A program made the position numbers and the translations under genes. Below, in pieces: positions 6,309-20,685 of a stretch of 64,000 nt of DNA (position 1 is its first letter; every line of letters starts with the position of its first letter). The DNA is from an uncultured Bacilli bacterium (GTDB taxonomy: Bacteria; Bacillota_I; Bacilli_A; RF39; UBA660), in assembly GCA_934096075.1 (NCBI GenBank), contig CAKOLN010000005.1, positions 15,103-79,102 on the forward strand, read 5' to 3'. A model generated the notes under the pieces. It was given only the letters and a program-made list of their open reading frames with translations. It ran no database searches and was not told the DNA's origin.

Positions 6309-6965
6309 TTACTCCTTAACATTTTTATTAACAATATTTGCTTTTTTTATTAATTTAATCAAATCTTTTATATCTTTAGAATTTATATTATTTTTTAATG
6401 ATTTTATAGTATCATTAATCTTATCACTAAACTCTTTAGAACTATTATAATTACTCAAATTAGAAAATCTCAATTCATCTATTGCATTCTCTAATTCCTT
6501 TTTCAACTTATTATCATCAGTTTCTTCTTTTAATAGTTTTAACTCATTTAACCATTCTTTTACATTTTTAGTCTTATTTAAAACTTTTTCTTGATTAGAA
6601 ATTACATGATTTTTACCTGAATTAATAAGATAATAATCAATATAATAAACACAAATTTCCAAAACCGAAACAATGATTAATAAATTATTATCCATAATGT
6701 TTAAAAAATATAAAACTAATACTAGAGACAAAATAATACTACACGTTATATACTTTAAGATGACAGAAGAATTAAGAACATCTTTTTTTATTTCATTTTC
6801 TTTGTTCTTCATAATTAAAATCAAACTAACTAGTTCAAATAATAAATAAGCACCACACACTATTATAAAGTTAACTATACTTTTATCTATATTTATAACA
6901 TACAAAATTATAAACAAACAAATTAAATATATAATATTTGGAATTAAAATAACTTTCTTTTTCAT
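6309..6965 (-). CDS. membrane protein with C-terminal coiled-coil (YdjH-like position)
   Basis: The 218-aa ORF has three or four N-terminal TM helices and a charged coiled-coil tail. It is packed tightly between its neighbours, with a 3-nt gap and a 4-nt gap. Confidence 0.35.
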   Translation of the reverse strand: MKKKVILIPNIIYLICLFIILYVINIDKSIVNFIIVCGAYLLFELVSLILIMKNKENEIKKDVLNSSVILKYITCSIILSLVLVLYFLNIMDNNLLIIVSVLEICVYYIDYYLINSGKNHVISNQEKVLNKTKNVKEWLNELKLLKEETDDNKLKKELENAIDELRFSNLSNYNSSKEFSDKINDTIKSLKNNINSKDIKDLIKLIKKANIVNKNVKE

Positions 6966-8190: not shown

Positions 8191-8412
8191 ATCCTGTGTA
8201 TAATTCTTAAGAAAATACATAAGAGCTAAATCATACTCATTATCATTATCTAACCCCACATACATTTCTTTACCATCTCTAATAACAATTTTATTTATAA
8301 TAAAATCTTTTTCATCATCTTGATTAACCAAATAAGCATACTTGGTATCTTTAACTTCCAATGTTTTCATCTCAACATATTCCACACCATTAATATTCAC
8401 TGTCCCAACCAT
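8179..8412 (-). CDS. small acidic protein, DUF1292-like
   Basis: The 77-aa ORF has a GVEYVEM...YAYLV...EMYVGLDNDNEYDL pattern like DUF1292 proteins. Its start overlaps the stop of the upstream gene (ATGA). Confidence 0.3.
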   Translation of the reverse strand: MVGTVNINGVEYVEMKTLEVKDTKYAYLVNQDDEKDFIINKIVIRDGKEMYVGLDNDNEYDLALMYFLKNYTQDNLK

Positions 8413-9140
8413 TATTTATTAACTCCTTTAATCACATCATTCTCTGCAGAATTTAAAATTTCTATTTGTTCACTACATGCTTTAGCAAACGCTTGATAAT
8501 TTACATATCCATATCTAACTACTACTTCATTAAATGTTTCTACATTTGTAAAATTAGTATCTGTTTTACCAACCAATTTACTTAATTCTTTAACAATTAC
8601 CTTAAGATTATTATAATTTTCTGTAGATTTAAAATCATCTATTAAAATACTTCCTACTTTCATTTCATGAGTTATATCATATAAAGCATACTTTCTATTA
8701 ATTTCGCTCAATAAGCTTAAGTCTTTTGCAATTTCTTCTGGAATCATAACTTGTTTATCATTAACTTCTTTCCAATTTTTTTCATTATGATAAATTTGTA
8801 TACCCTGATTATGATAAACACCATCATAATCAATTTGAACTTGACTTTCTGGCAAAGTATCAATTCTACCTGAAAACTTATTTAAATGTAAAGTTCCAAT
8901 TAAAACAAGATGAGCAGCAGCAAATACTCCGGCTAAAGTTCTTTGAAGTTTAATATTTTTTTTAATTCTTTCTCTTTCTCTTTTTTCTAAACTTCTTCTT
9001 CTAGCTTCTTGATATTTTAGATAATCTTCTTGAGATATTTCCTTTATAGCTCGCATTCCCATACCTTCACGCAAAATTTGCTCACGTTCTCTTTGCTCTT
9101 GATTCTCTCTAACTATCCATTCATTATCCTTATACTCCAT
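8412..9140 (-). CDS. hypothetical protein (charged N-terminus, one TM segment)
   Basis: The 242-aa ORF has an RE-rich N-terminus and then LAGVFAAAHLVLIGTL. The RBS is GGAGG. Confidence 0.3.
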   Translation of the reverse strand: MEYKDNEWIVRENQEQREREQILREGMGMRAIKEISQEDYLKYQEARRRSLEKRERERIKKNIKLQRTLAGVFAAAHLVLIGTLHLNKFSGRIDTLPESQVQIDYDGVYHNQGIQIYHNEKNWKEVNDKQVMIPEEIAKDLSLLSEINRKYALYDITHEMKVGSILIDDFKSTENYNNLKVIVKELSKLVGKTDTNFTNVETFNEVVVRYGYVNYQAFAKACSEQIEILNSAENDVIKGVNK

Positions 9141-10125: not shown

Positions 10126-11493
10126 TTATTTAGTAGGTATTAATATTTCTTGTCCAATTGATAATGTTGAACCAGATAGATTATTAATATTTTTTAATTC
10201 ATTAACTGTAACTCCATATGTGTTTGCAATTTTCCAAAGCGAATCACCTTTTTTAACTTTATATGTGGTATAAGATTCAGTACCAGGTATTTTCAATACT
10301 TGTCCTATTTGTAGTGTATTTGAAGATAAGTTATTTAAACTTTTTATATCATTTACACTAACACCATATTTATTAGCAATTGTATATAAATTATCACCTT
10401 TAACTACTACATAATTAATTCCAGCCGAAGTTGTTGGTTCTTTTTCTTCAACTTTTGTGTCAGATACAGGTATTAATAATTTTTGTCCAACATATATAGT
10501 GTTACCTGTAAGTTTATTTGCGCTTTTTATTCTATCTACTGTGATTCCATAACTGTTTGCTATTTTAGAAAGAGAATCTCCTGCCTTTACTGTGTATTCT
10601 ATTCCTTTTGGCTCTTCTTTTACATCTATTTCTATGTTTTCTGTTTTAGGTATTAGTAATTGTTGATTAATAGTTAATGTTGTTCCTTTCAAGTTGTTAA
10701 TATTCATTAATGTATCTACAGTAGTATTATATTTATTAGCAATTTTCCAAAGTGAATCACCAGATTTAACTGTATAAATTAAATAGTCTTCTACTGGTTT
10801 TTCTTCATCAAGCTTAACTTTTAAATTTTGTCCTACTGTAATTGTATTTGTTTTTAGGTTATTTAGATTTTTTAATTCTTCAACTGTTATACCGAACTTG
10901 TTAGCAATTTTCCAAAGTGAATCACCTTTTTGTACTGTATAATATGAACCTTCAACAGGCGCAGTATAGGGAAGATTTTTATATTTAGTTATTGCTCTTA
11001 CAACTGCTTCTGCATAATCTTTATAATTATTTTTTAATTGATTGACATCATCACCTTTTGAATCTAGAAAACCATATTCAACAATCACTGCTTCTGTATC
11101 TGGTGTGTTTCTGTGAATAAAATAATAATCTTTTACTGGGTTACTTGGAAGTCTTTGTTGATAATTCTTTCTTATATTTTGACCTTCACTTTCTAATTCT
11201 TCTAATATTGTATTAGAAAACTTTGAATTGTTTCTAAGAGCATAAATTACTTCAGCACCATCACCACCTCCTGCATTTATGTGATTACTAATAACAACTA
11301 CATCTTTACCTGTACCATAAGCATTTTTAATTCTATTGGTTCTATCAGTACTATCTATTGTTTCATCTGTAGTTCTTGTCATTGTAACAGGAATGCCTAA
11401 TTCTCTTAATCTATCATACATATACTTACTTATCAAAAGTGTAAGATCTTTCTCAATTATACCATTACCACTAGCACCAGGATCCGAACCTCC
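10126..11493 (-). pseudogene. N-acetylmuramoyl-L-alanine amidase (Amidase_3 + 5 LysM repeats): 3' portion of a gene interrupted by the integrated element
   Basis: The ORF track starts it at a TTG at 11436, but the frame stays open upstream to 11520 and encodes ...PIPRHGGSDPGASGNGIIEKDL (Amidase_3 DPGHGG..DPGA motif) with no ATG or GTG. Five YTV(K/Q)KGDSLWKIANKYG LysM repeats are present. The missing N-terminus MALKGVVIDAGHGG is found at 20643..20685. Confidence 0.7.
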
Positions 11494-11530
11494 GTGTCGG
11501 GGTATCGGAAAAGTCCAAATTTATTATTAT

Positions 11531-11920
11531 TTATATTTCTACTAGTTCTTTTGAATCTAACATAGATTTTGTTAAGTTTGTTGAAGAAACTATGGTTTTA
11601 TTGTCCCAGTAATTTAATAATTTATCTTTGTTTTCTTTAACCCATTTAATAGCAATATTTTTATTTTTATTTGGAATATTTCCAGCTAGAACTTTAAAAT
11701 CTAGTAATGAAATAGAAATTTCATATTTATCATATATTGCATGTACATGTGGAGGATTATGGTCACTAGTATAAACATAAAATTTTATACCTTTTTCTTC
11801 TCCTAATCTCTCTCTTATCTCATACACTTCAAATACATCTCTATAAAAATTTCTTATTTCTATTGGAATACCAAAATAATGCATTTCTTCTACTTTCATA
11901 ACTACTACCTCAAAATTCAA
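11531..11920 (-). CDS. DUF4160-family protein
   Basis: KFYVYTSDHNPPHVHAIYDKYEISISLLDFKVLAGNIPNKNKNIAIKWVKENKDKLLNYWD carries the HxPPHxH core of DUF4160. Confidence 0.45.
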   Translation of the reverse strand: MNFEVVVMKVEEMHYFGIPIEIRNFYRDVFEVYEIRERLGEEKGIKFYVYTSDHNPPHVHAIYDKYEISISLLDFKVLAGNIPNKNKNIAIKWVKENKDKLLNYWDNKTIVSSTNLTKSMLDSKELVEI

Positions 11921-13535
11921 AATTCCATTCTATTTCAATATCTCTTGTTTTATTTTCTTTATCATATTCTCCAATATATACTTTATCAATAAACTCATCT
12001 AATATAATTTTATTAAGTTCTTTTATATGTTTATATTTCTTTAATACGCTATCAGCATTTTTCTTTTCTTTCTTTTCAATTTTCAACTCATCAATTTGTT
12101 TATCTATTATTTCAATTCTTTTCATCATATTTTCTATTTCATTGAAATAATCTTTTGACATCATCTGAAACATATCTTCAGAAATAACTCCCTTAACTTT
12201 TTCCTCAAAAAGATTTCTATAATAAGTTTTATTATTACTTATTTTTTTATTTAAATCTTCTTTTTCTTGTATTAGTGCTTTTATTGAATTGTTATTATCT
12301 GTATCTTGTTCTTGTCTGTTTTCATAGAGTTCTTTTAAATTATTCTTATCATAGTAATTATCTAATAAATCATTAATAGCATTTAATAATATTTCTTCTA
12401 AACTATCCATTCTAATTACTTTATTATTAGGACATATATGAAACTTTTTATTACCCTTACATTGTAGATATGCTCTTTTACCTGTCTTTTCACTTTTAAC
12501 ACTATAAACATTTCTCATAAATGCTTTATCACAACAACTACAATATACTTTTCTAGTAAAATAATTTATTTGTCCTGTTTTAGTAACTTTGTAATGTGTT
12601 CCTAATATTGATTGTACTTTATTCCATGTTTCCATATCTATAATTGGTTCATGGGCATTCTCAATTCTAATCCAATCTTTTTTAGGTACTTTCATAGGTT
12701 TATGATTTTTATAACTTACATAAGTTGTTTTTCCTTGAACTAAATTGCCTATATAAACTTCATTTTTTAACATTTGAGCAATTGTATCAGGATTCCATCT
12801 AACTGTCTTTAAATTGCAATTACAACATACAAATTTGCTACCTTTTTGCTTTTTATAAACAGATCTAGGTGAAATATTATTATTGTTTAGATATTCACAT
12901 ATTCTATGATAACCATATCCATCTGCATACATTTTAAATATCTTTTTAACTACTTCTGCGGCTACTGGATCAACAACTAACTTATGTCCATCTTCATCTC
13001 TATCATAACCATATGAGGCAAAGCTACCCATAAATAAACCATCTTCTCTTTTATTCTTTAAAGACTTTCTAATATTTTGTGATAAGTCATCTAAATACCA
13101 TTCATTAATAAGTCCATTTATTTGTCTTGATTTCTTGTTAGATTCAATACTTGTATCAGCATTATCAATAATACTTACAAATCTAACTCCCCATTCAATA
13201 AACTTATTATGTAGATATCTTTCAATAACTTCCATATCTCTTGAAAATCTAGATTGTGATTTACATAAGACTAAATTAATCTTACCATTTTTACAATCAT
13301 TTATAAGTCTTTCAAAATCTGGCCTATAAGTTCCTGCTCCAGAAAAATCATCATCAGAATATATATCTACAACATCCCAACCATTTTGATTGGCATATTT
13401 TAAACACATACTTCTTTGATTTATTATACTATCACTATCATCAGTTTTATTTAGTTTATCTCTATCTTCATCAGATAATCTACAATATACACCTACCTTT
13501 TCCATCATAGCCATTCCTCCAATACATTGGAACAA
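11910..13535 (-). CDS. large serine recombinase (resolvase/invertase catalytic domain + recombinase + zinc-ribbon domains)
   Basis: VGVYCRLSDEDRD...INQR is the catalytic Ser region. It is followed by INLVLCKSQSRFSRD, a CCNCN...C zinc ribbon and a C-terminal coiled coil, 541 aa in all. The true start is probably MEKVGVY near 13505. The gene lies about 400 bp from the left junction. Confidence 0.8.
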   Translation of the reverse strand: MFQCIGGMAMMEKVGVYCRLSDEDRDKLNKTDDSDSIINQRSMCLKYANQNGWDVVDIYSDDDFSGAGTYRPDFERLINDCKNGKINLVLCKSQSRFSRDMEVIERYLHNKFIEWGVRFVSIIDNADTSIESNKKSRQINGLINEWYLDDLSQNIRKSLKNKREDGLFMGSFASYGYDRDEDGHKLVVDPVAAEVVKKIFKMYADGYGYHRICEYLNNNNISPRSVYKKQKGSKFVCCNCNLKTVRWNPDTIAQMLKNEVYIGNLVQGKTTYVSYKNHKPMKVPKKDWIRIENAHEPIIDMETWNKVQSILGTHYKVTKTGQINYFTRKVYCSCCDKAFMRNVYSVKSEKTGKRAYLQCKGNKKFHICPNNKVIRMDSLEEILLNAINDLLDNYYDKNNLKELYENRQEQDTDNNNSIKALIQEKEDLNKKISNNKTYYRNLFEEKVKGVISEDMFQMMSKDYFNEIENMMKRIEIIDKQIDELKIEKKEKKNADSVLKKYKHIKELNKIILDEFIDKVYIGEYDKENKTRDIEIEWNFEF

Positions 13536-13575
13536 CTACGAATAATTTTAAATACAAGTATATTATATATCATTA

Positions 13576-13719
13576 TTACGAATTATTTAATCCTAATTTT
13601 TGATTTTCTAGCTTTATAATGATATTTAACAATTTTCTATTAAATAAATCTTTTAATTCTTCATTAGTTTTATTTTCATTGTTCTTAAATTTATATTTTA
13701 CATTATATACTACCTCCAT
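13576..13719 (-). CDS. small ORF (47 aa) immediately upstream of the recombinase; candidate directionality/regulatory factor
   Basis: It encodes MEVVYNVKYKFKNNENKTNEELKDLFNRKLLNIIIKLENQKLGLNNS with a strong RBS, AAAGGGGGT. It is below the ORF-track length cutoff. Confidence 0.25.
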   Translation of the reverse strand: MEVVYNVKYKFKNNENKTNEELKDLFNRKLLNIIIKLENQKLGLNNS

Positions 13720-13799
13720 TTTCTATTTACCCCCTTTTCTTTAATTATAAATTAAATACTCCTTTCATAGACATCTTCTCCTTTGATTCTATAATTTAT

Positions 13800-14339
13800 C
13801 TATTGTATTTCATCTAATTGTTTATCAAATTCTATAGATTCTTCTTCGGTCATTGGATCTGATTTGCACACTTCAGGATGTTCCATCCAATAAGGTACAA
13901 TTTCTTCTCGTTTAAATTTATTTATTTTTTTATATTCATTTTTATATTTATTATTTATATTATGGTCACAAGTTTCTGCTACCATATCATTACAATTTTT
14001 TGCTACTTGGTTCGCAACTTTTGTTGGTATCTTTTCAGTATTAAGATATATTCTACGATTATTATTTTCATATTTTACTATGATATATTTTAATCGTTTT
14101 ATTTTAGACAATGAATCGCTAATTGTTCTTTTTGAAACTTTTACATAGTCTGCTAAATACTCATTACTCGCATAACAATATCCATTTTTCAAGGTAAGTG
14201 AAATGATAAGACCTAAAACACTACAATCTGTTTTAGATAAATTCCTATCATTAAATAATATTCTTGGAGTCATAATAAATTCACAATCTAATATAATAAT
14301 AGTTCTCCTATCTAATAAATATGGGCTTTTCCATTCCAA
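13800..14339 (-). CDS. phage/plasmid replication-organiser-like HTH protein
   Basis: TDCSVLGLIISLTLKNGYCYASNEYLADYVKVSKRTISDSLSKIKRLKYII is a winged-helix motif like phage replisome organiser N-terminal or RepA_N domains. Confidence 0.35.
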   Translation of the reverse strand: MEWKSPYLLDRRTIIILDCEFIMTPRILFNDRNLSKTDCSVLGLIISLTLKNGYCYASNEYLADYVKVSKRTISDSLSKIKRLKYIIVKYENNNRRIYLNTEKIPTKVANQVAKNCNDMVAETCDHNINNKYKNEYKKINKFKREEIVPYWMEHPEVCKSDPMTEEESIEFDKQLDEIQ

Positions 14340-14486
14340 ATTTTGAGCAATAATATCCTAAGGGGGATTTTTTATATCTTCCCCTAAAGATATTATTTTG
14401 ATTTATTCTATATATCTTATAGAAAAGGTACTAACATAAATCTCCGAACATTTACTGTACCTATATTTACTAGTGATTTTATCGTT

Positions 14487-14750
14487 CTAGTAAATGTGAT
14501 ATTCGTATAATCCTGTATCGTATTCTTTATAAACTAGATATTTGTTTTTTTCTAATATCTTTAGATTATTTCTAAATCCGATATTGGTTATACTTTTTAG
14601 CTCCCTTTGTATTCTTCCAATGCTTATATGTGAGATAGTTCTTTCAAATCCCTCTGCAAATAGATAAGCATATATTTCTTTTGCTTCAGGTTTGATGTTT
14701 TTATCCCTCCATATCCTATGGTTTGAAATATCTAGGTGCTTTATTCTCAT
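14487..14750 (-). CDS. small HTH-like protein
   Basis: The 87-aa ORF contains ISHISIGRIQRELKSITNIGFRNNLKILEKNKYL. It is divergent from the XRE regulator. Confidence 0.3.
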   Translation of the reverse strand: MRIKHLDISNHRIWRDKNIKPEAKEIYAYLFAEGFERTISHISIGRIQRELKSITNIGFRNNLKILEKNKYLVYKEYDTGLYEYHIY

Positions 14751-14904
14751 TCATCTCTGTTCCTCCTTTCCCACCGATGAGTTTTACATCAATTTCTTAT
14801 TGAGTATATCATCACATAATGAGTTTGTCAACACTATAATTGCAAAAATGTATTGATTTTTACATCACTATGTGTTATACTTATTTCAGTCGAGGTGGTA
14901 TTAG

Positions 14905-15453
14905 ATGAAAAAACAGACTACTGAATTAGGTAAACTAGTAAGTGAAACAAGAGAAAAACTAGGTATTTCACAAAGAGAACTTGCCAGAAGATCAAATATG
15001 GATTGTGCTGAAGTATCTCGTATAGAGGCTGGTAAAAGATTAAAACCAAACATCCTATACTTAAAAGGAATTGCTGAAACTCTTAATTTAAGTATGGTAG
15101 ATTTAATGAAACTTGCTGGTTATAATGATATAGATATAAATTGGGGTAAAGATTTATCAGTTAAAAGATCAACTGCTGACTATCAACGACAAATAGAAAG
15201 TTATGAAAAATTTTATTTCGATGCACTTGATCATTTTGAAGAAAATAGAAAAGTTGATTTTGCTATTAAAGGATGTATTGCTGATTTAATTGATAAATTA
15301 GAATTAGCAAAAATAAAAAAAAAGGAAATATCTAATGATGAAATATTAGATAGATTAAAGGAAATAATTTCTATGATTAGACCAAATTTAGAAAAATTTG
15401 ATAAGTCTAAATATCCATCATTTGATAGTGCATTATTTCCAAAAAGAAAATAA
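14905..15453 (+). CDS. XRE-family transcriptional regulator
   Basis: LGISQRELARRSNMDCAEVSRIEAGKR is an HTH_XRE motif. Its position resembles a phage-like regulatory switch. Confidence 0.6.
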   Translation: MKKQTTELGKLVSETREKLGISQRELARRSNMDCAEVSRIEAGKRLKPNILYLKGIAETLNLSMVDLMKLAGYNDIDINWGKDLSVKRSTADYQRQIESYEKFYFDALDHFEENRKVDFAIKGCIADLIDKLELAKIKKKEISNDEILDRLKEIISMIRPNLEKFDKSKYPSFDSALFPKRK

Positions 15454-15705
15454 CCTTAGTACATTAATTGTATTAAGGTTATTTTTATATAAAGAATACG
15501 TGGCACGTTTTGATCTGTAAGGTTGAAAGTGGCGATAGTATTCTTTCTTTTTTATAAAACGCAAGTTGTAATAAAAAAGGCGACATTACTACTTACGATT
15601 AGTTTGTAGTTTTGTCGCTTAAATGGGGTTCAAAGGGGTATTTATCCCTTGCCCACTGTTATTGGCTATGCCAATAGCGTAGTGGGTTACTATAATGGAA
15701 TTATA

Positions 15706-15746
15706 GTAAAAAGGCAAACTAATTTATTTAGTTTTGCCTTTTTGAG
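15706..15746. terminator. bidirectional terminator between the convergent XRE gene and 15724..16404
   Basis: aaaaAGGCAAACTaatttatttAGTTTTGCCTtttt has A/T runs on both sides. Confidence 0.55.
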
Positions 15747-16404
15747 GACTACCATTATAATAAAATGTTCTTGATTCAAAATCGATATAAGTTGGTATTC
15801 CTTTTTCTTCTAGTAAATGAAGTAAAACTTGTAAATCTATTAAAGGTGAAGTAGCAATCCCCTCTTGAATAAGGTGCACAAACATTCTGTCTGTCTTGGA
15901 AAGATCTTGTGATACCTTATTATCCCCATACATTTCTTTAAATGCTCTTTCAAAGACATCTCTTCCATATGTTTCTATAATTCTATCAGTATCAAATTCA
16001 ATTCCTACTATTTCATAAGGAATAATTCTATTTCCTTCAGGGACTTCAGCACTAGACGCAATTTTCATTGTTCCTTCTCTTACGCTTTCTAAAAACATAC
16101 GATATCTTTTATCTAATGTTTGGTCTTTATTTTGTTCGTTTTTTGTTTTGTTTGTAGTTTCAAATCCTACATCATCAAATGCTTTTAAATATTTACTAGT
16201 TTCTGGAACATAAAATAATAAAGCATCCCTTTCTTTAGAAGTTAATGTATATTCTGGTTTTAACATTCCTCTTTCATCATATTGATCATTTGCACTTAAT
16301 TTAGAGATAGCTCCCATATATGCACTTCCATATTTAAGTTCCATGTAATCTCTTAAATCTTTCATTGCTTTTGCATGTTGCTCGTTCAAATTACTAAAAG
16401 CCAT
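15724..16404 (-). CDS. hypothetical protein (226 aa)
   Basis: The ORF is acidic with no recognisable motif. Confidence 0.3.
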   Translation of the reverse strand: MAFSNLNEQHAKAMKDLRDYMELKYGSAYMGAISKLSANDQYDERGMLKPEYTLTSKERDALLFYVPETSKYLKAFDDVGFETTNKTKNEQNKDQTLDKRYRMFLESVREGTMKIASSAEVPEGNRIIPYEIVGIEFDTDRIIETYGRDVFERAFKEMYGDNKVSQDLSKTDRMFVHLIQEGIATSPLIDLQVLLHLLEEKGIPTYIDFESRTFYYNGSPQKGKTK

Positions 16405-16480
16405 TTATATCACCTCCATTAACTTAATTATAACACAGATTTGAGAATATTCTTAATAAAATTATAAATTTTTACATTTT

Positions 16481-17750
16481 TTATAGACTTATTTCATAAT
16501 CGTCTTTATCTTTTTCCTGATAATATGATTTTTTTCTAGTTTTGTAATAACCAGGTATATCTGCATAATCAAATAATTCATCTTCTTTGGTTGTTCCTTT
16601 AGATATATCATAAACATCATTTGAATTAAATTCTTTACTATCATAATAGTCTTTTATTTCAATTGTAGTAGTTTCTTTTACAAGTTCATTACCAATTTGT
16701 AATAAATTCCTAAAAAACTCTTTAATTACCTTTAAAATGGCTTCTAATCGTGTGTTTAGTTTAGTGTTATCTTTAGAAAGTTTATTAACTCTAGCATTTA
16801 GTACCTCGTTTTCCTTTTCTAAAGTTTGATGACTTTTAGTATAGTTATCAACTTCATTAAATAATTGTTGTAATTTAGGTTGAAACTCTATTGCTTTTTT
16901 ACTTTCTTTAATAACTTTATTCATACTTTCAAAAGTATCTTTTTCTACTAATACGTGCGTTTTGCTAAAAGGTATATTTTTTGTAGTTTTCATCTTTTCT
17001 TCAAAAACGTTCATAGCATTATCTATTCTAGTATTTATTACCTTAACTTTGTTTTCATAATATCTAGTAGTTTTCTTTAATTCTTTTGTTTTTTGATGTT
17101 TAGCATTACTACCTTTAATACCACGTTCTAAATCATATCCTTTTTCAGTTAGTCTTTTATGATATTTATCCTGTAATTCTGATAAATGATATTTATCTCT
17201 TATATATTGTTTTTTAGATATAGTATATCTTTCTGTATTTGTTCTTTTATCATACTTTTTTACTAGTGGAATAACTACACAATGCAAGTGTGGTGTTTCT
17301 TCATCTAAATGAATAGTAGCGTGTAATACTTGTGATTTTGTATAACCTAAATTTTTATAAACAAATTCCATACAAGTATTAGCCCAATCAATAATATCAT
17401 CTTTATTCATATTCTCAAAAAAATTATGGGTAGCAGTAAATAATAGTTCATCTGCAACAACATTTTTTGATTTATTTAACATTTGACTATAAGTCTTTTT
17501 TCTTTCTTGTCTTTCTGTCTTTTGTCTTTCATTGTGTTCTTTTTCATATTCCTTAGTTAATTCTTTAAAACCTTTAACATATTTAGATTCAAGTGGTACT
17601 AACTCAATGTTATCATCTTTTAATTCTAATTTAATATCAGGATTAGATTTATAAGCCTGTTTTTCTCTTTTATTGTGTGATCCGATTTGTGCTAAATCAT
17701 TTAAAGTCATAATCTGTTGACTTCTAAATATTGCATAATTTAAATTCATT
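16481..17750 (-). CDS. MobV-family (Mob/Pre, pMV158 MobM-like) relaxase
   Basis: The N-terminus is MNLNYAIFRSQQIMTLNDLAQIGSHNKREK...NPDI. The HxDExTPHxH metal motif appears as HATIHLDEETPHLHCVV, and the C-terminus is a coiled coil. The likely start is the ATG at 17748-17750, with RBS GGAAGGAGAG. The track ORF begins 26 codons earlier at 17827. Confidence 0.75.
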
Positions 17751-17776
17751 TTATCTCTCCTTCCTTTGCATACGAA

Positions 17777-17800
17777 AAAAGATACTTTTTCAAGTATCTT
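17777..17800 (-). terminator. palindromic hairpin terminator (AAGATACTT-N4-AAGTATCTT + T-run), copy 1; lies in the 70-bp gap immediately upstream of mobV (candidate oriT region)
   Basis: The minus strand reads AAGATACTTgaaaAAGTATCTTTTTTCG. An identical 24-nt core is at 20563..20586. Confidence 0.5.
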
Positions 17801-17820
17801 AAATTTAATAATAAAATAAT

Positions 17821-18621
17821 TTAACATTTAATTTTTACTGATTTTTCTTTAAATTTAAAATCATTTTCACTATCCTGTTGATAAATATTAAGAACAAATT
17901 TATCTCTTTCTGTATGAAATACTTGATTAAAGATATTTATATTTGTGGAAGCAGGAGTTGATAAAAATAAGTTATAATTCCAACAATACTGTTTAGTACT
18001 TTGTACCTCTTTAATAAGTATTTCTATTAGTTCTTGAGACTTTGTTCTAATTCCTTTATCTCCTTCTCTAGTTATACTTATGGTATAACTATCTATTATT
18101 TTTTGTGGAAGTTTTGCTTCTATAATAGGATATGTGTCAGATATTATAATGTTTATTTGTTTAGTATTTTTGTTGCATTTTCCTTTACGACTTACTTTAT
18201 ACTTATAATTACGATTTGAATATTCTGTATTATCAAAGCATTCCAACTTATTTATATTCAACAATTGAAATTGTAAAGGGATGGGTTTCATCTTTAAATT
18301 AACTTTTCTATAGCCTGTAATTAGCCAAGCAATATAATAAATAATAATATGATAATCTCCATAAATGTCAGTAGGAGCATATTCTTTATCCTTATTTAAA
18401 CGTCTATATATAATTAAAAATCCAAAAAACAATAGTACACAAGCTACTCTTCTAAAATGATTGAACGTTATTTTTGATAATTCAATTAAAAATCCATTTC
18501 CCTCATAATCAACAATTTTAAATATTGATGATAAACCTATTGATGTAATAGCAATTAATAATATTGGTAAAACTATCGTTCTCACTGGGTATAAGAATTT
18601 TTTAATTTTTTTCATGTTCAA
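17821..18621 (-). CDS. two-TM membrane protein with ~190-aa C-terminal domain; candidate effector of the nucleotidyltransferase cassette
   Basis: TM1 is LPILLIAITSIGLSSIFKIV and TM2 is VACVLLFFGFLIIYRRL, followed by a soluble C-terminal domain. Its start overlaps the upstream gene stop by 20 nt. Confidence 0.4.
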   Translation of the reverse strand: MNMKKIKKFLYPVRTIVLPILLIAITSIGLSSIFKIVDYEGNGFLIELSKITFNHFRRVACVLLFFGFLIIYRRLNKDKEYAPTDIYGDYHIIIYYIAWLITGYRKVNLKMKPIPLQFQLLNINKLECFDNTEYSNRNYKYKVSRKGKCNKNTKQINIIISDTYPIIEAKLPQKIIDSYTISITREGDKGIRTKSQELIEILIKEVQSTKQYCWNYNLFLSTPASTNINIFNQVFHTERDKFVLNIYQQDSENDFKFKEKSVKIKC

Positions 18622-19042
18622 TACCTCCTCCTAACCATTTTCCTGTTATTCGCCAAAGCTCATAAAAATATAACCAATCAATCGTCCATGGTATGATTGT
18701 ATCTGCCAGAAACATATCCCTTGACCATTCCTGATATTTTGGATAATACAAGCACACCTTTACATATTCATCATCTTTATTATTATAATGCCTTCTATAA
18801 CAATGAGGAATATATTCATCTTTTTTTGTCATAATACCTTGATTGTATAAGTAAACCTCTGGTGTTATACCATTATATTTTACTGTAATATCATAGGCTC
18901 TAGATAATTCAGATGGTCTTACTCTTTGTTTCCAAATTAGATTTCCCATTCCTAGCTTACAATCAAGGCAATCATACTTTGATTTAAGATTTAATAACTG
19001 AATTGCAACATTCTTTGGCTTTTTAAAAAATTTATTTGCCAA
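18602..19042 (-). CDS. 146-aa Cys/His/aromatic-rich protein of unknown family, middle gene of the cassette
   Basis: It carries CLDC...HCYRRHY...C...IPWTIDWLYFYELWRITGKW. Its start overlaps the NTase stop by 11 nt. Confidence 0.35.
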   Translation of the reverse strand: MANKFFKKPKNVAIQLLNLKSKYDCLDCKLGMGNLIWKQRVRPSELSRAYDITVKYNGITPEVYLYNQGIMTKKDEYIPHCYRRHYNNKDDEYVKVCLYYPKYQEWSRDMFLADTIIPWTIDWLYFYELWRITGKWLGGGIEHEKN

Positions 19043-20198
19043 AGAATGTATGCTCCTTTACTTTAGTATCAGTTTTATTAGCAGTAATTGTTGCAATATT
19101 TTTCCTATCAATATATCTTTCACTCATGGATGAATTTCTTTTTTCAAATACATTTGTTATTGTTTTGTTTCCAAACACTTTTTTTAGATAATTAGTCTTT
19201 TCAGTTATATCATCAAATATCATAAAGTTATTCGTAATTAAATCATATTTTAAGTTTTCTACCCAGTTAAAAAACGCCTCTTGCCTTTCTGGATATATTT
19301 TCCATTTATCAGCAAAATTTTCATTTTTATTAACAGGATTTGGAATAACATAATTTCCGTTAGAGTCTATTTCTATGTACTCTTCATACGATGTACAAAA
19401 CTTATCAATTAAATCCAAAATACTTTCATTTCCAGAATACATTTTCCCAACTAAAGTCGTTATTATAATTGATATTGGTTTACATTCTTTTTCTTCATCA
19501 GTAGCATTAGCATATTGTATATCTCTATGTCTTTTTAATATTTGAATTGCTTTTTGAAGAGTAGTTCTAATTCCAAAATTTCTCAAATCTTCAACTTTAT
19601 TTGAGAATTGTCGATTCTTTATTCTATATAAATTTCTTCGTTCGTTCTCTTGTAATTTATCAAACCAATCTGCATATGCTTCAGGATTAGATACCATATA
19701 TTTATAGCTGTTATTCTCTTTATGTGTTATTTTTATTGATTTGTCAGTTATGTTATTTGGTATTGATGGCAATATATCCATATGAAAATGTGAATCATCA
19801 GAATAATTTAATGTCCAACACCTTTTTCCCTCATCAGCTAACATTTTTTTATATCTTTCACTTTTCTTTAAAGCATTACCAACTAATTCTTTTAAATCTT
19901 TTGGAGAATCAAAATTGTTATGTATTTTACAAACAGCATCTAAATCATAATCATCATCATCGCCTATAGGTTTTATTAAAGTTCCAAGATTCATTGATCC
20001 TTGTGGATAAACTTCAACAGGGTATTCAATATTGTTTTCCAAAAATTCTCCTAATGCTTTATAACTCCTTTTTGCATTTTCAAACACACTATCTGATATA
20101 TTGAGTTCTTCTGCTATATTTTCATAAATCTCGTTTATTATTTCTTTATCTTTCATCTTTAGCCTCCTTATCATAATAAACAAAAGAGGCAACACCAA
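19032..20198 (-). CDS. cGAS/DncV-like nucleotidyltransferase (CD-NTase / SMODS-type, Pol-beta superfamily)
   Basis: YPQGSMNLGTLIKPIGDDDDYDLDAV has the GS-x9-13-DxD layout. A third acidic site HFHMDILPS lies about 65 aa downstream. The protein is 388 aa, and the RBS is AAGGAGG. Confidence 0.6.
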   Translation of the reverse strand: MVLPLLFIMIRRLKMKDKEIINEIYENIAEELNISDSVFENAKRSYKALGEFLENNIEYPVEVYPQGSMNLGTLIKPIGDDDDYDLDAVCKIHNNFDSPKDLKELVGNALKKSERYKKMLADEGKRCWTLNYSDDSHFHMDILPSIPNNITDKSIKITHKENNSYKYMVSNPEAYADWFDKLQENERRNLYRIKNRQFSNKVEDLRNFGIRTTLQKAIQILKRHRDIQYANATDEEKECKPISIIITTLVGKMYSGNESILDLIDKFCTSYEEYIEIDSNGNYVIPNPVNKNENFADKWKIYPERQEAFFNWVENLKYDLITNNFMIFDDITEKTNYLKKVFGNKTITNVFEKRNSSMSERYIDRKNIATITANKTDTKVKEHTFFGK

Positions 20199-20562
20199 CC
20201 ACCATTTAAAGCGGTTTATTCAAGTAAATAAAAATACATATTGATCTTCTTCCTAGTTAGAATATGTAAACCAATATGCACTACATTTATTATACAATTG
20301 ACTTTTAAAATCATTTTGTGTTAATATTAATATAGGAATTGATTTATTCATTCATTCAATTCTCCAAATATTTCTTTTAAATATTTGCTTTTTAATTTAT
20401 TGGGTAGTTGGGTGCTACCTATAAGGAAATATGCTTTTGCTCTTAAGCATATTTTTTTGTCGTTTATTGACATACGTTCCTTATAAGGACAATATACCAC
20501 AAAAATGTGTTATTAGCAATAGAAATGCATCAGTGCTAATTGTTTTTTTATTTAAATTGTTA

Positions 20563-20586
20563 AAAAGATACTTTTTCAAGTATCTT
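20563..20586 (-). terminator. copy 2 of the palindromic hairpin terminator, ~60 bp inside the right end of the element
   Basis: The minus strand reads AAGATACTTgaaaAAGTATCTTTTTAACAATTT. It is positioned to stop read-through from the host amidase promoter into the cassette. Confidence 0.5.
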
Positions 20587-20642
20587 TAAACTTTTGCATT
20601 TATTATTATTCATAGTCATTCACTTATTTTGGATTTATCCTA

Positions 20643-20685
20643 TTCCTCCATGCCCAGCATCAATAACAACACCTTTTAACGCCAT
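20643..20685 (-). pseudogene. 5' fragment of the split amidase gene (MALKGVVIDAGHGG-IG*)
   Basis: The RBS AGGTGA is at 20691-20696 and the ATG at 20683-20685. The frame ends 2 codons past HGG, at the junction with the element. Confidence 0.65.

Follow-up and report, generated by a model that had tools for sequence, protein, structure and literature searches.

The 64,000-nucleotide stretch of contig CAKOLN010000005.1 analysed here in full (the window), from an uncultured Bacilli bacterium, contains an Amidase_3/LysM gene that is interrupted by a 9,156-bp element at positions 11497-20652, counting one CA dinucleotide. Removal of these positions restores the amidase open reading frame (ORF). The element encodes a large serine recombinase (LSR) and a MobV relaxase, and we put the probability that it is a site-specific integrative mobilisable element (IME) residing in the amidase gene at about 85%. 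All hosts are known as metagenome-assembled genomes (MAGs).

The interrupted amidase gene and its empty site

Both pieces of the amidase gene lie on the minus strand. The 5' piece starts at ATG(20685), reads ...MALKGVVIDAGHGG and continues with only IG before a stop codon, while the 3' piece (...RHGGSDPGASGNG... / ...RHGGSDPGASGNGIIEKD...) runs down to a stop codon at 10126 and lacks an in-frame start codon ahead of residue 32. Joined, the two encode in frame a 467-aa protein with an Amidase_3 domain (residues 6-182) followed by five LysM domains, and this reconstructed amidase matches database protein P0001 with 100% identity over 100% of the length. Intact alleles at 97-99% identity are numerous in the protein database. 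The parts of the interrupted locus that matter for the argument are the following, in window coordinates:

10126..11494, minus strand: host amidase 3' part, from the third base of the His12 codon to the stop, encoding the rest of Amidase_3 and five LysM domains
11495..11496, minus strand: crossover CA (plus-strand TG) at the recombinase-side junction, arranged as P arm-CA-B' arm
11497..11530, minus strand: P arm, ...AAATTTGGACTTTTCCGATACCCCGA, conserved throughout the LSR clade; forms a dyad with the P' arm
11910..13508, minus strand: LSR, 532 aa, with Resolvase, Recombinase, Zn_ribbon_recom and DUF4368 domains and the catalytic motif YCRLS (S12)
20620..20650, minus strand: P' arm, TGGAGGAATAGGATAAATCCAAAATAAG...
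20651..20652, minus strand: crossover CA (plus-strand TG) at the promoter-side junction, arranged as B arm-CA-P' arm
20653..20685, minus strand: host amidase 5' part, MALKGVVIDAG and the first two bases of His12, with the promoter region upstream to ~20780

The 3' part has neither a promoter nor a start codon that would take in His12. The reconstructed N-terminus aligns with the amidase domain of Cwp6 (VVIDPGHGGSDSGA), and we take His12 of the GHGG motif to be a zinc ligand, as is presumably the case throughout the Amidase_3 family.

P0001 is encoded on three contigs (L001-L003), one of them an NCBI MAG (GCA_964329405.1), where the intact gene is flanked, as in the window, by genes for a 1,133-aa pyruvate:ferredoxin oxidoreductase (PFOR) and an adenine glycosylase. 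Their alignments to the two window flanks, at ~98% identity, overlap by 8 bp and end precisely at 20645 and 11496. Three occupied contigs (L004-L006) carry the same element at the same site and are 99.6-100% identical to the window; the occupied allele is present in samples ERZ27287023, ERZ28615100 and ERZ4568042. Therefore, the insertion is a strain-level polymorphism within one species. The preliminary description of this DNA had proposed that the element sits precisely in the active-site (GHGG) codons of the amidase, and the identity of the joined ORF with P0001 bears this out; the two pieces are exact complementary halves rather than paralogous fragments, and the comparison it suggested with strains that lack the element finds the empty site between the same neighbours.

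The 431-aa database 'amidase' entries P0012-P0018 are gene calls on the interrupted allele, made on the L004-L006 contigs. In these Amidase_3/LysM calls translation begins at an internal Met and the presumed zinc-binding His is missing; truncated amidase calls of this kind in these MAGs are insertion artefacts, not real short genes. Farther out, synteny with L001-L003 and with the occupied L006 stops at ~9223, just beyond the adenine-glycosylase gene; there those contigs have a SleB/CwlJ-type Hydrolase_2 gene, and the window has a 242-aa ORF (8412-9140) followed by Band_7 and GH31 genes. Judged from these alignments, ~9223 is a second strain-variable breakpoint.

Crossover position and the target motif of the recombinase family

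The sequence is GCTGGG-CAC-GGAGG-TTCGG at the closest empty sites, GCTGGG-CAT-GGAGG-AATAGG at the promoter-side junction of the window and CCCCGA-CAC-GGAGG-TTCGG at its recombinase-side junction. The repeat at the window junctions is CA-(T/C)-GGAGG with a mismatch, CAT on the promoter side and CAC on the other. Across 54 recombinase-side junctions of the family the element arm (...TTTGGACTTTTCCGATACCCCGA) is constant up to the CA, and the bases 3' of it (T/C, GGN, GGN) differ by host synonymous codons; at 22 promoter-side junctions it is the host arm that varies up to the CA, and the bases that follow are constant inside each element clade. Distant clades have CCAAGT or CCAAAG after the CA in the element arm, with GGAGG absent, and in the window element, L034, L067, L070 and L074 the two junctions have nothing but CA in common. 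The reconstructed arms of attP, the attachment site of the element, show dyad symmetry about this CA, with 17-23 of 30 positions matching, and the sites of large serine recombinases are known as a class to be dyad-symmetric with a central crossover dinucleotide. The CAT/CAC pattern, the junction survey and the dyad symmetry together place the strand exchange at the CA of the His12 codon (CAY). The attP of the window element would read ...TTTGGACTTTTCCGATACCCCGA-CA-TGGAGGAATAGGATAAATCC... (junction reference ...CCGATACCCCGACATGGAGGAATAGGATAAATCC...), and attB, the corresponding host site, ...GATGCTGGGCACGGAGGTTCGGATCC...; the base after CA is T in attP and C in attB. The 22 relatives whose bounds were established are 7.5-11.3 kb long.

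The preliminary description had pointed to CCTCC as a plausible core. The sequence is indeed present at both junctions (11489-11493 and 20645-20649), but CCTCC/GGAGG was rejected as the crossover core in favour of CA, as the GGN GGN codons are host-variable and the P' arm of distant clades is devoid of GGAGG. It represents a likeness between an attP arm and attB, the apparent repeat arising because the first P' arm bases mimic the host GHGG codons. A TnpX-style crossover at the GA within GGAGG was rejected on the same two grounds and on the CAT/CAC pattern.

The LSR matches the integrases of PHROGs at E=1.3e-109; its database relatives number in the thousands, and many of them lie on long chromosomal contigs. 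For a family survey one genome per GTDB species was scanned, which returned 80 loci, nearly all from MAGs of uncultured gut 'Bacilli/Tenericutes/Mollicutes', including Clostridium sp. CAG:417 and a closed 1.31-Mb chromosome. At 60 of these loci an Amidase_3 gene truncated at residue 11-12 directly follows the LSR, and two further ones (L076, L081) have divergent amidase starts. In L063 and L089 (11590-11700 in each; LSR 66% identical) the DAGHGG codons are occupied in the orientation opposite to the amidase, which is possible because the His-Gly junction CATG is palindromic. Overall, 64 of the 65 evaluable species-level loci with an LSR identity of at least 50% are at the GHGG motif of an Amidase_3 gene. 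The target amidases are only 26-88% identical to that of the window, some with other architectures, and D[AP]GHGG is restored in frame in each of the 22 attB sites reconstructed, the attB consensus being the codons of V-V-I-D-A-G-H-G-G-x-D-P-G. On this comparative evidence the LSR family is strictly site-specific and is predicted to recognise the D[AP]GHGG coding motif of Amidase_3, so that DNA encoding a catalytic protein motif (D-A/P-G-H-G-G) would serve as a landing site across hosts. LSRs 97-98% identical to that of the window (L021, L022, L023, L055) adjoin amidases only 30-67% identical to the window amidase, and such near-identical recombinases beside divergent targets indicate recent transfer between species. 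A second, intact amidase copy was seen in L042, L046, L066 and L079.

The sole exception in the amidase-targeting clade is L044 (1726-1800), where the P arm is followed by ...GHTVINPGASF and a stop; this looks like a decayed or rearranged amidase remnant, or else a pseudo-attB. Outside this clade, a sister LSR clade (48-51% identical; L086-L091, L093, L094, L099) has a fragment of an ABC-transporter ATPase gene (...VALIRTL...LLLDEP) just downstream of the recombinase, which suggests that this lineage targets a conserved ABC-ATPase motif in place of the amidase motif. In L092, L095, L097, L098 and L100 (LSR ~49% identity) the ORF downstream of the LSR is Bro-N-like (...GNEIRSIWDSEKEDYYFSVVDV...). 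Second LSR-like matches were found 2.5-10 kb from the primary LSR in L022, L028, L047, L069, L083 and L096 and may belong to neighbouring or additional elements; in L047 and L069 the sequence past the second match encodes LysM repeats.

Backbone, cargo and a probable free form of a sister element

The conserved backbone of the family consists of the LSR, an HTH_36 protein, orf87, an XRE regulator and MobV. Domain searches agree with the preliminary description of the insert as encoding a serine recombinase, a MobV relaxase, XRE/HTH regulators and a nucleotidyltransferase cassette. Apart from the LSR, the features inside the element are:

11531..11899, minus strand: DUF4160 protein, 122 aa, DhiT-toxin-like (65 bits against an NCBIfam cutoff of 100), accessory
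13800..14273, minus strand: HTH_36 winged-helix protein, 157 aa, backbone, weakly similar to replication-initiator DNA-binding domains
14487..14750, minus strand: orf87, conserved backbone protein with faint similarity to replication-initiator winged helix-turn-helix (wHTH) domains
14905..15453, plus strand: XRE-family HTH regulator, 182 aa, divergently transcribed, backbone
15724..16404, minus strand: orf226, no family match
16481..17749, minus strand: MobV relaxase, 422 aa, Mob_Pre E=4.2e-27, with HLDEETPHLH (HxDExxPHxH)
17776..17803, minus strand: hairpin and T-run, copy 1, ~27 nt before the MobV start, found in every clade
17821..18615, minus strand: effector with two transmembrane helices (2TM), SUa-2TM E=4.2e-27, of a cyclic-oligonucleotide-based antiphage signalling system (CBASS)
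18602..19042, minus strand: CBASS E2-like protein, 146 aa, PADLOC E2 E=4.7e-39, with a Pfam E2-CBASS match
19032..20156, minus strand: CD-NTase (CBASS oligonucleotide cyclase), 374 aa, PADLOC PDLC00780 E=1.6e-114, with a DncV-like NTFase domain
20562..20589, minus strand: hairpin, copy 2, identical to copy 1 at 27 of 28 nt, near the element end

The relaxase scores 109.2 bits against the curated NCBIfam MobV cutoff of 100. No domain of a type IV secretion system, mating pore or VirD4-type coupling protein was found in any ORF of the 9.2-kb element. Phage structural and packaging genes are likewise absent from it, PHROGs having matched only the integrase, the wHTH proteins and the DUF4160 protein (the last to a family of unknown function), and we rejected a prophage or satellite on this basis. 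The DUF4160 gene, which lies between the LSR and the att arm and resembles the DhiT type II toxin, has no visible antitoxin partner; among species-representative loci it occurs only in the window element, L027 and L055.

Every clade has a conserved hairpin with a T-run 25-30 nt upstream of MobV. Its folding energy is -8.9 to -11.4 kcal/mol (z-scores against shuffled sequences, -2.9 to -3.7), and a terminator scan called neither window copy, because the G-C pairs are too few. We consider it a candidate stem-loop of the origin of transfer (oriT) or a weak terminator. The 2.8-kb CBASS operon sits between the element end and MobV and is bracketed by the duplicated hairpin, and relatives without an insert in that slot have the hairpin once, upstream of MobV. 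This suggests that the slot on the MobV side is a hotspot for the acquisition of cargo, possibly by recombination at the oriT-like site.

The operon itself has the composition of a type II CBASS in its short, E2-only form (cyclase, E2 and 2TM effector), the effector having further PADLOC matches at E=1.9e-29 to 1.9e-40. We also count orf226 as cargo: it has no family match, and none of the related elements surveyed carries it. The MobV gene of most relatives begins 110-165 nt from the element end, with a variable cargo of 4-6 kb between MobV and the XRE/orf87 genes. That cargo comprises ABC transporters, TetR and two-component regulators, VanZ, Bro-N and metabolic genes; defence-type cargo is represented by specificity subunits of type I restriction-modification, AriA, AbiLi and PADLOC candidate families. 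Among species representatives CBASS and orf226 are found in the window variant only. Defence is therefore one cargo type among several, and CBASS is specific to this variant: the defence cargo proposed in the preliminary description is present as an E2-type CBASS but does not characterise the family.

A free form was sought through attP. A degenerate family-level pattern, to which integrated junctions do not conform, had no match in IMG/VR and one among the JGI metagenome contigs, L104 (9,859 bp), whose LSR is 96.8% identical to that of the window and which contains no amidase or other host DNA. L104 is a circular permutation of the element, with its head at element position 6688 and its tail at 6662, so that its ends, both within the HTH_36 gene, are 25 nt apart. 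Its attP is uninterrupted, contains CA-T-GGAGG, reads CATGGAGG and is one base off the window prediction over the ~60-nt core. L104 supports both the assignment of the crossover to CA and a free circular form of this sister element; it is no proof that the window copy excises. Another candidate circle, L103 (a 9,146-bp contig with a related LSR, P0161), was rejected, being an integrated copy beside another Amidase_3 gene. The circular form that the preliminary description had proposed to look for is thus represented by an attP-bearing sister, not by the exact window element.

Proposed mechanism, alternatives and relation to known systems

In the mechanism that we propose, the LSR recombined a dyad-symmetric attP with a chromosomal attB, the stretch of an Amidase_3/LysM gene that encodes V-V-I-D-A-G-H-G-G-S-D-P-G, exchanging strands at the CA of the His12 codon. 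Integration has cut the promoter and first 11 codons off from the remainder of the gene: only a 16-residue stub now follows the promoter, the 3' part lacks both a promoter and His12, and the amidase is therefore inactive for as long as the element stays. At the sequence level the event is exactly reversible, and excision at this CA, catalysed by the LSR and possibly without a recombination directionality factor (RDF), would rebuild the gene. As the element encodes MobV itself but lacks mating-pore genes, the circle is presumably transferred by a co-resident conjugative element: MobV would nick near the conserved hairpin and the DNA would pass through the mating pore of this helper. The circle could then reintegrate into any Amidase_3 gene with the motif, which would give it a broad host range, and plausibly at low cost, as the motif is kept constant by selection in a gene family with redundant paralogues. 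The E2-type CBASS operon should confer phage defence by abortive infection, and elements of this kind may offer a route by which CBASS and other defence and transport genes move among organisms not yet in culture.

Several points weigh against this interpretation. The exact predicted attP of the window element has no match in the JGI metagenome contigs or IMG/VR viral contigs, and L104 is a single linear contig of a sister with a 25-nt gap, with which a tandem dimer or a replicating plasmid form would be equally compatible. No RDF was recognised in family searches of the element ORFs, the small ones of which include orf47 (13576-13719), orf87 and the DUF4160 gene, and no helper conjugative element is visible within the 64-kb window. 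The hairpin is AT-rich with a trailing T-run and is possibly a terminator; no nick site was found in it. Finally, the presumed role of His12 as zinc ligand is based on the motif alignment with Cwp6 and on what is known of Amidase_3 in general.

The assembly of L104 as a host-free, near-complete circle would also be expected of an integrative plasmid, for which the integrated state is one phase and whose excised circle replicates via HTH_36 and orf87. These two proteins do match, weakly, the DNA-binding domains of replication initiators and both belong to the conserved backbone. However, at 157 and 87 aa they have no recognisable catalytic Rep or helicase-loader domain, nearly all copies are integrated (64 loci as well as L004-L006 and L103), and plasmid collections hold no close relative, the best LSR match there being only 37.5% identical; we therefore regard an integrative plasmid as unlikely. 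That the window copy is instead a fixed remnant, integrated in the past and no longer mobile, would agree with the failure to find its exact attP in metagenome and viral contigs and with the recurrence of the insertion, 99.6-100% identical, in several samples, a possible sign of clonal inheritance. Yet all backbone ORFs are intact with their catalytic motifs, neither att arm is damaged and the two agree with the attP of the circular sister L104, and the presence of the element is polymorphic among strains with ~98% identical flanks, which makes immobility highly improbable. A chance landing in the amidase by a low-specificity transposon of the Tn4451/Tn5397 type was suggested by the DUF4368 domain of the LSR, a mark of the multi-targeting TndX/TnpX clade (PMC10083194), and by TndX being its best annotated relative. 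It is refuted by the family survey and hardly credible any longer: the Amidase_3 codon occupied is the same in 64 of 65 evaluable relatives, the ends are CA and not GA, and the identity to TndX is 32%.

Two further explanations concern the function of the split gene. The elements might be reversible switches on peptidoglycan amidases, with conditional excision (in stationary phase, sporulation or germination, or upon phage attack) rebuilding autolysin genes of the CwlC or CwlD kind and integration silencing them; in a variant of this proposal the same LSR may also enter prophage Amidase_3 endolysin genes, disabling them or hitch-hiking. We find this very improbable, although, if true, a mobile element would control autolysis or spore-cortex maturation in uncultured gut Bacilli. 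The more specific idea of a developmentally regulated intervening element similar to skin, SPbeta or gin, conceivable in the preliminary description, is that the germ line keeps the element and that excision occurs only in a terminal cell type (e.g. the mother cell) and rebuilds a CwlC/CwlD-type sporulation amidase. Such a role would suit an element that carries an LSR, interrupts a gene and allows its exact restoration. The target resembles CwlC in lacking a signal peptide and in having Amidase_3 at the N-terminus and wall-binding repeats at the C-terminus, the N-termini of the targets in L048, L054 and L061 are CwlD-like (...LPLxGKxIxIDPGHGG), and in empty-site strains (L001) the amidase has a SleB/CwlJ-type Hydrolase_2 gene nearby. 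On the other hand, no sporulation genes were seen in the Pfam content of the 64-kb window, and neither an RDF nor a sporulation-type or other developmental regulator was recognised in the element. The element also bears a relaxase and spreads between species, and strains free of it are common. The many non-orthologous Amidase_3 targets, at 26-88% identity, fit targeting of the motif and not control of one developmental gene. Regulated excision of this kind is thus not borne out, and we consider it very improbable.

The site-specific IME that we favour is best understood by comparison with described elements. In skin, SPbeta and gin, excision is controlled by sporulation and involves an RDF, and these elements either resemble prophages or are no longer mobile (PMC4191935, PMC5595907). 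They share with the window element the LSR-mediated insertion into a coding sequence and the rebuilding of the gene by precise excision, whereas the window element has a relaxase, crosses species and has no RDF or sporulation link that we could find. Its CBASS shows no detected functional difference from known type II E2-only 2TM systems, the location in a hairpin-bracketed slot being the notable feature.

The preliminary description had called the element Tn4451-like, and the small IME layout of a DUF4368 LSR, a MobV (TnpZ) relaxase and cargo is indeed that of Tn4451 and Tn4453. Their ends carry a GA dinucleotide as the crossover, in contrast to the CA found here. The window LSR has the domain set of TnpX/TndX-type recombinases, DUF4368 included, but is only 32% identical to the related TndX, its best annotated relative, and matches the catalytic domain of TnpX (2mhc) at E=1.1e-12. 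No catP or chloramphenicol-acetyltransferase domain is present in any element ORF and no genes of the tnpV/W/Y type were recognised in the element, no sequence comparison with those genes having been made; the element instead combines CBASS cargo with a backbone that includes two wHTH proteins and an XRE regulator. Tn4451 and Tn4453 recombine at a 2-bp identity, yield a circle on excision and have low target specificity (PMC5704250), as opposed to the strict site specificity of the window family (64/65). The Tn4451 recombinase TnpX is reported to excise without an RDF (PMC5704250). From these comparisons, the element appears to be Tn4451-like in layout only.

Diverse LSRs are known to converge on one coding site, such as comM/Mg-chelatase or prolyl isomerase, as described by Durrant et al. 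(PMC10083194). The family described here is similar in that LSRs of 50 to 98% identity all use the GHGG codons, and differs in that the amidase-targeting LSRs carry DUF4368, which is found in 63% of the multi-targeting clade of that study versus 0.73% of site-specific LSRs (PMC10083194). A DUF4368 LSR, a type usually treated as promiscuous, can thus be strictly motif-specific. The amidase-targeting family would score as 'multi-targeting' in that scheme (PMC10083194) because its targets span many 50%-identity gene clusters, and motif-specific LSR families in general would be misclassified when targets are clustered by gene identity. Amidases are not mentioned in the main text of that study (PMC10083194), and amidase genes as LSR or IME targets were not found in the searchable literature, whose coverage is incomplete. 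The family, widespread in ~60 species-level genomes of uncultured gut Bacilli/'Tenericutes', is apparently undescribed there, and it provides a natural attP/attB series with a defined CA core that could serve recombinase engineering.

Streptococcal serine-recombinase IMEs, such as those in rumA, disrupt a dispensable conserved gene and have very short flanking repeats (PMC5704250). The window element is alike in that a serine integrase has disrupted a conserved, dispensable gene by inserting into it, and in that the flanking repeats are very short. The differences are that the window family uses Amidase_3, with many paralogues and orthologues, instead of one orthologue, and that its hosts are uncultured gut Bacilli/'Tenericutes' known from MAGs. 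In its behaviour the element is closer to rumA-type IMEs and to motif-converging LSR clades than to Tn4451.

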